In this document: one piece after another, positions 12,468-39,628 of the stretch
How positions within the stretch are numbered: the stretch's first letter is position 1
How the letters are laid out: each line of letters begins with the position of its first letter
DNA from: Candidatus Woesearchaeota archaeon
GTDB taxonomy: Archaea; Nanobdellota; Nanobdellia; Woesearchaeales; GW2011-AR9
Assembly: GCA_018303045.1 (NCBI GenBank)
Contig: JAGVYX010000013.1
Coordinates: 1-48,408 of the forward strand
Reading direction: 5' to 3'
Length of the DNA stretch: 48,408 bases
Program-made: the position numbers and the translations under genes
The notes under the pieces: generated by a model
Databases searched by the model: none
The model's input: only the letters and a program-made list of their open reading frames with translations
What the model was told of the DNA's origin: nothing

Positions 12468-12563
12468 TTTAGATGTGTTTTAATTGACAGTTTATAAAGA
12501 TTTGGGTTTTGTTTAGCCGGCAGCGAGCATAGTTTTATAAAAGAAAATAACTAAAAAACAGTT

Positions 12564-13928: not shown

Positions 13929-14094
13929 AGATGAACAAAAATAGATCCTACATTAAAATTGATCTATAGCGCAGGACATAATTATTTGATCATTTACCTG
14001 TGCTATATTCCGAAAGATACAACTATTTTAATTAATTATTTGTGTCTTTCGCTATACATTTGCTATACCTATTAAAGTATTACTAACAATATTT

Positions 14095-14200
14095 GCCGTG
14101 TTACATAAATAAAATCTAAAATAGTCAATGATTAAATATAGTTGTTCTCGATTAAACAAATTTAGCAACTTTTGATTAAAAATGAATTATGCAACACAGC
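14095..14200. mobile_element. MITE-like 106-bp element with 12-bp imperfect TIRs and an 11-bp target-site duplication
   Basis: The left TIR is gccgtgttacat. The reverse complement of the right end is gctgtgttgcat, matching at 10 of 12 positions. Identical flanking direct repeats taacaatattt lie at 14084-14094 and 14201-14211. The interior is AT-rich and non-coding. Confidence 0.6.
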
Positions 14201-14242
14201 TAACAATATTTTGTCATTTTTAGGGTAAACTTAATACCTGCT

Positions 14243-34428: not shown

Positions 34429-34434
34429 TTAAAT

Positions 34435-34473
34435 TAGTATAGATAATTCTGTTAATTAGAGCACATTTTCGTG
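34435..34473 (+). promoter_or_regulatory. conserved ~38-nt box just after the tmk stop codon; copy 2 of 2
   Basis: See 3652-3691. Confidence 0.5.
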
Positions 34474-34552
34474 AAAACTATCTGACGATAACTCATTAAA
34501 TTTATGTATCCCAATCAAGGGAATTATCTATATAACTCCGTGAACAAGCATA

Positions 34553-34574
34553 TGCTGTGTTGTGCAACACGGCA
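34553..34574. repeat. 22-bp palindrome made of two MITE-type TIRs joined head to head
   Basis: In tgctgtgttg-tg-caacacggca the arms are 9 of 10 complementary. They match the TIR consensus gcYgtgttRca seen at 14095, 14190 and 39494. Confidence 0.7.
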
Positions 34575-39438: not shown

Positions 39439-39493
39439 CGGACTGAATATTGGCTTAATTAGGCAGTTATTTATAAAGGTTTTGCTGGGGTTT

Positions 39494-39591
39494 GCTGTGT
39501 TGCATAAATACGAAATAAACAATCAATAATTACAGAAAGTCAGAGTTTGATTAAAATATTTTAGCGATTTTTGATTAAAAGTTGAATTATG
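39494..39591. mobile_element. degenerate second copy of the MITE-like element (right TIR lost)
   Basis: It is collinear with 14095-14191 at roughly 70% identity by eye. Shared blocks are gctgtgttgcataaata, tcaatRatta, gattaaa, and atttagcRaYttttgattaaaa..gaattatg. Confidence 0.5.
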
Positions 39592-39628
39592 TTAGATAAG
39601 AATTCTAGTCCAATTAACCTTCATCCGC

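Follow-up and report, generated by a model that had tools for sequence, protein, structure and literature searches.

The locus and its miniature element

The window analysed here is the whole stretch of 48,408 nucleotides, contig C53 of the source MAG (G000), a 1.0-Mb, 74-contig, 84%-complete assembly. C numbers denote contigs of G000, L numbers denote contigs from other samples or public loci, and the other G numbers are genomes of relatives. Contigs near-identical to the window come from groundwater and aquifer metagenomes. The region of interest is a 314-bp spacer (13929-14242) between the start of the gene for a 231-aa HhH-GPD glycosylase (13928) and the stop of a 384-aa minus-strand ORF (14243), in which an ORF scan found no frame of at least 40 aa. 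Here, the initial annotation had described a 106-bp non-coding element with 12-bp imperfect terminal inverted repeats (TIRs), laid out as TAACAATATTT (14084-14094), GCCGTGTTACAT (from 14095) to ATGCAACACAGC (up to 14200) and again TAACAATATTT (14201-14211). The element is present exactly there, and its TIRs match at 10/12 positions, or at 11/13 when the outer base is counted, as the boundaries established below imply. The features of the window that matter are the following:

14085-14093, no strand: target-site duplication (TSD), left copy, AACAATATT, 9 bp (the 11-bp repeat first described is 14084-14094)
14094-14201, plus strand: MITE of subfamily 1, 108 bp, non-coding
14094-14106, plus strand: left TIR (13 bp), T-GCCGTGTTACAT; family consensus TGCNGTGTTGCAT
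14189-14201, minus strand: right TIR (13 bp), ATGCAACACAGC-T; outermost base T, against A in all other copies examined
14202-14210, no strand: TSD, right copy, AACAATATT, 9 bp
34553-34574, no strand: TIR-TIR relic in which the outermost 9-11 nt of the two TIRs adjoin; no TSD
39493-39591, plus strand: MITE of subfamily 2, lacking 12 nt at the right end; no TSD of its own

The MITE sits upstream of the glycosylase gene, 42 nt past the stop codon of the 384-aa one, with the end running on into ..GCATAAAT (“End A”-like) on the left and the one running on into ..GCATAATT (“End B”-like) on the right. It is a genuine miniature non-coding transposon, far beyond what chance would produce: the TIR pattern GCNGTGTTRCAT is seen three times in the window, where 0.02 occurrences are expected, and none of 100 shuffles gave three or more, while the 11-mer TAACAATATTT is found exactly twice (0.12 expected). 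That an inverted repeat arose here by chance, along with a local duplication having nothing to do with transposition, is hardly credible. This reading has the AT-rich spacer in its favour and nothing else; the shuffle controls, the 29 termini found in the genome against none in the control and the independent TSDs at other loci, both described below, all speak against it. We consider it very probable (roughly 90%) that 14094-14201 is a MITE that has kept only the two ends of a ~1.18-kb IS of the IS5 family, similar to IS903.

The spacer holds a second, unrelated MITE-like repeat of ~91 bp (13966-14056), located between the MITE studied here and the glycosylase start codon, with TIRs TATAGCGCAGGACA / TGTCTTTCGCTATA. 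It has further copies in G000 (C41:4353-4446, 97% identical; C30:3369-3468; C21:7396-7494; C11:9698-9785) and, at 78-88% identity, in other genera (ca. 8 copies in G005, ca. 10 in G006, and also G023). Together the two MITEs make up ca. 200 of the 314 bases, which mostly accounts for the unusual length of this spacer.

Target-site duplications

Perfect 9-bp TSDs, all different, were found at six unrelated MITE loci of G000:

C53:14094, AACAATATT
C12:7527, GGTTAATGA
C37:15597 (51-bp mini element), GACATCACC
C58:9312, CAGAAAAAG
C64:2505, TTCTCGGTG
C73:14777, TTCGGAGAT

In oriented elements, every copy has a T just outside the left GC, and all of them except the window copy (T) have an A just outside the right GC. 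If the duplications are read as 11-mers, mismatches fall at positions 1 and 11 only and never inside, so the element must be read as T-GC...GC-A and the TSD as 9 bp. This family-wide TSD, plus one extra base at each end, gives 14094-14201 as the best boundaries. Thus, the identical flanks that had been noticed around the element do exist, but 11 bp is not the length of the TSD: that model is ruled out by the confinement of mismatches to the outer positions together with the constant T and A at the element ends, and the window copy reaches 11/11 through a 9-bp TSD plus two coincident T's. Two complete copies lack a clean 9-bp duplication (C57 has none and C6 has 6 bp). A local duplication does not explain the flanking repeat either, given the independent TSDs at six loci, and an origin of the copies by segmental duplication was discarded because the flanks beyond the TSD are unrelated. 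A search of 101 flanks for an IS903-like motif (WTTYA-N9-TRAAW) returned a weak T-rich/A-rich symmetry inside the TSD and nothing more general.

A repeat family with two subfamilies

The 12-mer terminus occurs 37 times in G000 when one mismatch is allowed. The check for more genome copies suggested by the initial annotation gave 29 occurrences of the 15-mer terminus TGCNGTGTTGCATAA against none in a reversed control. Among 40 relatives its distribution is patchy, with 13 occurrences in G023, seven in G005, three in G019, one in G002 and none in the remaining 36. The proposal of a non-autonomous element family was borne out, with >20 copies or fragments in G000 and six complete copies at unrelated loci, each within its own perfect TSD. 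The complete short copies fall into two MITE subfamilies of ~107 bp, the copy at 14095 belonging to the first and that at 39494 to the second:

Subfamily 1: C53:14095; C57:10009-10133; C64:2506-2740 (with a nested 129-bp insert); C63
Subfamily 1, further members: C37:15598-15648 (51-bp mini element); one-ended copies on C29 and C7
Subfamily 2, close members (mutually 98-100% identical): C12:7528-7634; C73:14778-14884; C53:39494; C38:1-97
Subfamily 2, distant members: copies on C58 and C6; fragments on C68, C50 and C69

Both subfamilies have the same pair of ends, one running on into ...GCATAAAT and the other into ...GCATAATT. Identity is 86-96% inside subfamily 1: the window MITE shows 96% to C57:10009-10133, apart from a 19-nt insert, and 86-88% to the copies on C64 and C63. 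It reaches 98-100% in the core of subfamily 2, a sign of recent amplification. A GC-richer hairpin segment of ~129 bp (…GGGTATCATACCC…GGAGCTCTGCTCC…) is nested in subfamily-1 copies (C64:2600-2728 and C63:17081-17144) and may possibly be a third small mobile element.

We also considered whether the element could be a functional RNA or regulatory module (a small RNA, the terminator of the 384-aa gene or a promoter module) that happens to resemble a MITE. Its minus strand folds better than shuffled sequences (-24.5 kcal/mol, z = -3.9), it is placed 42 nt past one gene and upstream of another, and a right-hand segment of ~45 nt (..TTTAGCRAYTTTTGATTAAAAR..GAATTATGCAACAC) is common to both subfamilies. 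However, the fold amounts in essence to the TIR stem, z is only -1.5 for the plus strand and a search of Rfam gave no match, so the structured-RNA reading was set aside. Besides, the two subfamilies have different interiors, which accommodate tandem duplications, a nested insertion and shrinkage to 51 bp, copies are found in both orientations relative to the neighbouring genes, and the TSDs, together with termini identical to those of an IS, account for the spread without any function. A role of this kind seems improbable.

The copy at 39494 and the TIR-TIR relics

The collinear copy that had been pointed out at 39494 is real, but it represents a sister subfamily (75% identity to the 14095 copy and 98-100% to the copies on C38, C12 and C73), and its supposedly degenerate right end turned out to be a deletion specific to this assembly. 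The 12 nt missing at 39591/39592 (CAACACCGCAGT, plus strand) comprise 9 nt of the right TIR, the terminal A and two flank bases, and the right TIR is intact in ten other assemblies of the locus (among L098-L108); the deletion is either a true strain variant or an assembly error. The 9-mer GTTTAGATA is the B-end flank of this copy and the A-end flank of the 100%-identical copy at C38:1-97, i.e., one ancestral TSD split over two copies, as expected after recombination between MITEs. Both flanks (39592-39609 and C38:98-125) carry an 18-20-nt ACTAGAATTCTTATCTAA(AC), and this suggests that the recombination between MITE copies took place at a site with a former 20-nt tandem repeat. Upstream of the ribosomal protein S13 operon, whose TATA box is TTTATAAA, the A-like end of the 39493 copy lies at a distance of 6 bp + 9 bp from that box.

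The fusion of the two TIRs described at 34553-34574 was also found as such. The stretch reads T-GCTGTGTTG-T-GCAACACGGC-A, a 20-bp relic between T and A, and a second, 18-bp relic of the same kind is present at C16:5215-5232 (GCGGTGTTGCAACACAGC). The latter would fit a deletion between the self-complementary TGCA of both TIRs, which would not account for the absent TSDs. Next to the relic at 34553, and next to the element end at C25:16667, there is a repeat of ~49-nt units (TATAGATAATTCT...TTATCTGAC), found at 34430-34520 of the window, C35:1-100 (in tandem) and C25:16590-16660.

The autonomous partner

No transposase had been seen in the window, and this holds for the partner IS family, a Pfam DDE_Tnp_1 search of C53 being empty as well. 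Two longer repeat ends, located at 13 places in G000, bear the same termini, and contigs stop there ~98 nt into the repeat, a length that equals the assembler k-mer overlap. “End A” (GCTGTGTTGCATAAATAGTCA..., eight copies) holds the stop codon of an ORF with a DUF2080 domain (Pfam E = 4e-13), and “End B” (GCTGTGTTGCATAATTCAGGC..., five copies) holds the last 21 codons of a transposase. The End B variants of C3 and C12 differ by six synonymous third-position changes in the outward-reading frame, from which it follows that End B terminates a real gene. A protein search with the DUF2080 sequence recovered 76 homologues, many of them on 1.2-kb contigs, and the complete element was found on contigs encoding one of these (P0003, 94% identical). 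The IS with the same TIRs that had been sought is therefore a ~1.18-kb element, assigned to the IS5 family (see below), which shares the ends of the MITEs, has a 9-bp TSD and is absent from the window. Intact copies occur in related groundwater Nanoarchaeia:

L031:2992-4174, intact IS, 1183 bp, TSD CGTTTAAAC, termini TGCTGTGTTGCATAA on both sides
L040, intact IS at a second insertion site, 1182 bp, TSD CATTAAATT

Copies at L081, L085 and L088 also have 9-bp TSDs, and the lengths range from 1182 to 1189 bp. The IS in L031 codes for a 306-aa transposase reading to End B and, divergently, for a 52-aa DUF2080 protein reading to End A; its transposase ends in ...QEAKMKFWAYQKMKRYGQA, and that of G000 in ...QEAKIKFWGYQKMKRYGEA. 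Of the named genomes, the closest ones that have this IS are MAGs labelled “Candidatus Nanoarchaeia” and “Candidatus Woesearchaeota”.

In G000 itself, the IS bodies have collapsed into assembly gaps. No intact partner transposase is assembled there, and tblastn detected only 21-aa C-terminal stubs at four contig ends, none of them on C53. One metagenome contig, L071, joins an exact G000-type End A to an exact G000-type End B followed by the flank of C37; it is the only G000-type contig that joins both ends, and its transposase is internally deleted and repeat-scrambled. Three pairs of contig ends (C11/C49, C13/C3 and C43/C32) present an End A and an End B with reverse-complementary 9-mers, i.e., the two halves of a TSD, an independent confirmation of both the pairing of the ends and the 9-bp TSD. 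At the IS ends of C13 (6105-6485), C3 (6402-6670) and C11 (10595-10721), unrelated genes begin after 75-176 nt of IS sequence. These ends have matching TSDs though they lie on different contigs, and they are IS-associated rearrangement breakpoints. C13 has kept End A and an intact DUF2080 ORF adjoining three copies of a 39-bp tandem repeat, and L041, from another sample, has a different flank beyond End A (Polysacc_synt). In practical terms, the parent IS explains at least nine contig breaks in G000, and the TSD-matched pairs provide scaffolding links (C43-IS-C32, C11 and C49, C13 and C3) and also reveal IS-associated rearrangements.

Another transposase gene fragment adjoins End B on C3 and was examined as a candidate partner, but it belongs to a different IS and lies on the opposite strand. 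It is the C-terminal part of a different DDE_Tnp_1 transposase (C3:6402-6596, minus strand, Pfam E = 2e-11) that abuts the End B relic. A full 336-aa DDE_Tnp_1 ORF is found at C65:1246-1800, and both observations indicate a second IS family in G000.

With the parent element at hand, the composition of the MITEs can be read: they have ~25 nt in common with End A and ~19 nt with End B, the remaining ~65 nt being unrelated AT-rich filler. This bears on another explanation, that the short copies are independent internal-deletion relics of the full-length IS that were never mobilised as MITEs. Deletion derivatives certainly exist: besides the 51-bp mini element (C37:15598) and the TIR-TIR relics of 18 and 20 bp, G019 has one of 620 bp and C13 carries a relic with DUF2080 only. 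However, the same non-IS interior recurs in MITE copies at separate loci, which independent deletions would not recreate, and the 98-100% identity within subfamily 2 and the TSD that each copy has of its own point the same way. This explanation appears largely refuted by the shared interiors, and we regard it as very improbable.

Family assignment and known relatives

The partner transposase is assigned to the DDE transposases by matches to profiles that span the whole domain: NCBIfam NF033579 “IS5 family transposase” (161.9 bits, cut-off 140), PF13737 (42.1, cut-off 28.1) and PF01609 (38.5, cut-off 23). For the small ORF of End A, PF09853 and NF033496 both score above cut-off. The best annotated relatives of the transposase are an IS5-family protein of Sulfolobus islandicus pYN01 (33% amino acid identity) and thousands of IS903B copies; the IS903B transposase is ca. 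25% identical to that of the partner, with 94% of the length aligned. By these matches and its termini, the partner is classified as an IS5-family, IS903-like insertion sequence.

The IS903B TIR, GGCTTTGTTGAATAAATC (plasmid NZ_CP070925.1), is identical to the family terminus TGCTGTGTTGCATAAATA at 14/18 positions, and the terminal repeats of the partner are accordingly of the GGC/TGC...TTG type, similar to IS903. Both have a transposase of ca. 306-307 aa and a 9-bp TSD, as published for IS903 (PMC2577343, Table 1), and both have a weakly palindromic, T-rich/A-rich target, given for IS903 as the motif WTTYA-N9-TRAAW (PMC2577343). The differences are that IS903 is bacterial (enterobacterial plasmids) and has a single ORF in 1057 bp, the length that we read from the IS903B record, while the partner is 1182-1189 bp long and has a second, divergent ORF; the IS903B stretch examined has no DUF2080 partner in its annotation. 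The partner is thus a variant architecture rather than a textbook IS903 (~1.05 kb, one ORF).

Among archaea, the S. islandicus IS5 element is also 1057 bp long, with termini TGCTTTGTGG.../...CAACAAAGCA (TGCTTTGT...) and the 9-bp TSD CACACGACC. By comparison, the partner is 1183 bp long and has the divergent DUF2080 gene in addition; we do not equate the pYN01 element with ISC1058. The Sulfolobus MITE SM3A depends on ISC1058 and is, like the family described here, an archaeal MITE dependent on an IS5-family transposase (PMC3718332), but it is crenarchaeal and 164 bp long, whereas the G000 MITEs are of ~107 bp and reside in a DPANN archaeon. The partner also resembles the archaeal insertion sequences associated with DUF2080 (NF033496, “DUF2080 family transposase-associated protein”), an annotation class alone, in which any function of the protein is putative. 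DUF2080, the IS5-family transposase and the same TIR are found together in MAGs of Nanoarchaeia, Micrarchaeota, Iainarchaeum and Thermoplasmata. In the literature, DUF2080 was met in antitoxin-like and CalpT contexts only: one report treats it as a domain of antitoxin type (PMC10440598), another as the C-terminal domain of CalpT (bioRxiv 10.1101/2024.05.08.593097). A sequence-based search gave no solved structure.

Relatives of the IS confirmed by tblastn, with the same 15-bp terminus and 9-bp TSDs, extend to MAGs of Nanoarchaeia/Woesearchaeota, Micrarchaeota, Iainarchaeum, Thermoplasmata and Methanosarcinales, the DUF2080 gene being present in some and missing in others. Since this terminus is almost invariant across such lineages, the MITEs of this clade could be cross-mobilised. 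A census of prokaryotic MITEs placed DPANN among the MITE-densest archaea, with “a Woesearchaea genome” at 105 MITEs/Mb (PMC11602168); its families come without links to a parent IS, TSDs or target geometry. What appears to be new here is one archaeal MITE family with its partner, the MITE/IS5-IS903 kind and the MITE-dense lineage being already known.

Mobility and occupancy of the sites

The family combines shared termini, many independent 9-bp TSDs (on MITEs and full-length ISs), a multi-copy structure with subfamilies and a common IS architecture. Mobilisation would probably take place in trans: the 306-aa transposase, supplied by the partner, would bind the 13-15-bp termini (TGCNGTGTTGCATAA), excise the MITE and reinsert it with a 9-bp staggered cut, and the duplication AACAATATT at the window copy would be the product of such an insertion. 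Current activity, and any role of DUF2080 in the process, are likewise putative. Since no intact transposase is assembled in G000 and the one in L071 is deleted and scrambled, present-day mobility in this organism is hypothetical.

Empty-site alleles, which the initial annotation had hoped for, did not appear. The predicted 33-mer of the empty site is absent from the metagenome contigs, and all five contigs from other samples that span the 14095 locus are filled; over 600 nt L042 shows 100% identity, the 314-bp spacing recurs in L054-L057, and the MITE with its TSD is seen in L054. More generally, both window copies are filled in all the contigs from other samples that encode the flanking proteins. 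The window insertion is fixed in every spanning assembly examined. The same-genus genomes G001 and G002 have no synteny at the window locus, and the site orthologous to that of the L031 IS is absent from G000. As no empty site occurs among the assemblies examined, transposition is deduced from the many independent TSD-flanked copies, the usual line of reasoning and in this case a strong one. The contigs L044 and L045 break exactly at the MITE edges and could have been taken for an insertion polymorphism, but their terminal 68 nt match the C57 copy exactly, and this repeat identity makes them ordinary repeat-induced assembly breaks. An IS insertion polymorphism does exist elsewhere, near window position 12560: in L043 (a contig of JGI 3300009296), the 196-aa ORF adjacent to the glycosylase gene has downstream of it a gene for a 318-aa DDE_Tnp_1 transposase (1671-2309) instead of the Rpb7-like gene.

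Spacing to TATA boxes

We searched for TTTWWAW outward from 43 element ends in G000, over 54 offsets. The motif starts at offset 15, i.e., 6 nt beyond the 9-bp TSD, at 6/43 ends (seven by eye), against two ends at offset 16 and a mean of 0.33 over all offsets (binomial P ~1e-6, or ~6e-5 corrected for 54 offsets). The seven sites are:

C37:15649, TSD side GACATCACC, spacer actaac, box TTTATAAA
C53:39493, TSD side AACCCCAGC, spacer aaaacc, box TTTATAAA
C58:9420, TSD side CAGAAAAAG, spacer aaaagt, box TTTATAAA
C64:2505, TSD side CACCGAGAA, spacer gaaaca, box TTTATATA
C29:5133, spacer tagttg, box TTTATAAT
C17:22324, spacer ccctaa, box TTTTTAAA
C25:16667, spacer ttaatt, box TTTTATAT

Their flanks are unrelated, and the TATA box is faced by either end of the element. 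At least three of the boxes are followed by an outward ORF of at least 70 aa, which starts 32 (C37), 55 (C64) or 85 nt (the S13 operon) past the beginning of the TATA box; what look like short ORFs come after those of C58 and C29. The MITE at 14094 is not an exact case, the nearest TATA-like sequence, TTTAATA, being at offset 17. The pattern is absent from the 13 ends of full-length ISs in G000 and was seen at one or two at most of ~68 IS ends in relatives and public loci. Being confined to MITE-type ends, it may be explained by the survivorship of small insertions at promoter edges.

Six base pairs is the length of the BRE, the element bound by TFB. It is tempting, but at present rather doubtful, to propose that the MITE family inserts non-randomly, with the 9-bp target ending exactly one BRE length upstream of an archaeal TATA box. 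The MITE and its IS are otherwise routine mobile-DNA annotation, and this promoter-edge spacing is the sole feature of possible wider interest. If targeting rather than survivorship were behind it, the transposase, perhaps together with DUF2080, would read the BRE/TATA sequence or the DNA bent by TBP-TFB. If true, DNA transposons in very compact archaeal genomes would have a “safe haven” strategy at the edges of promoters.
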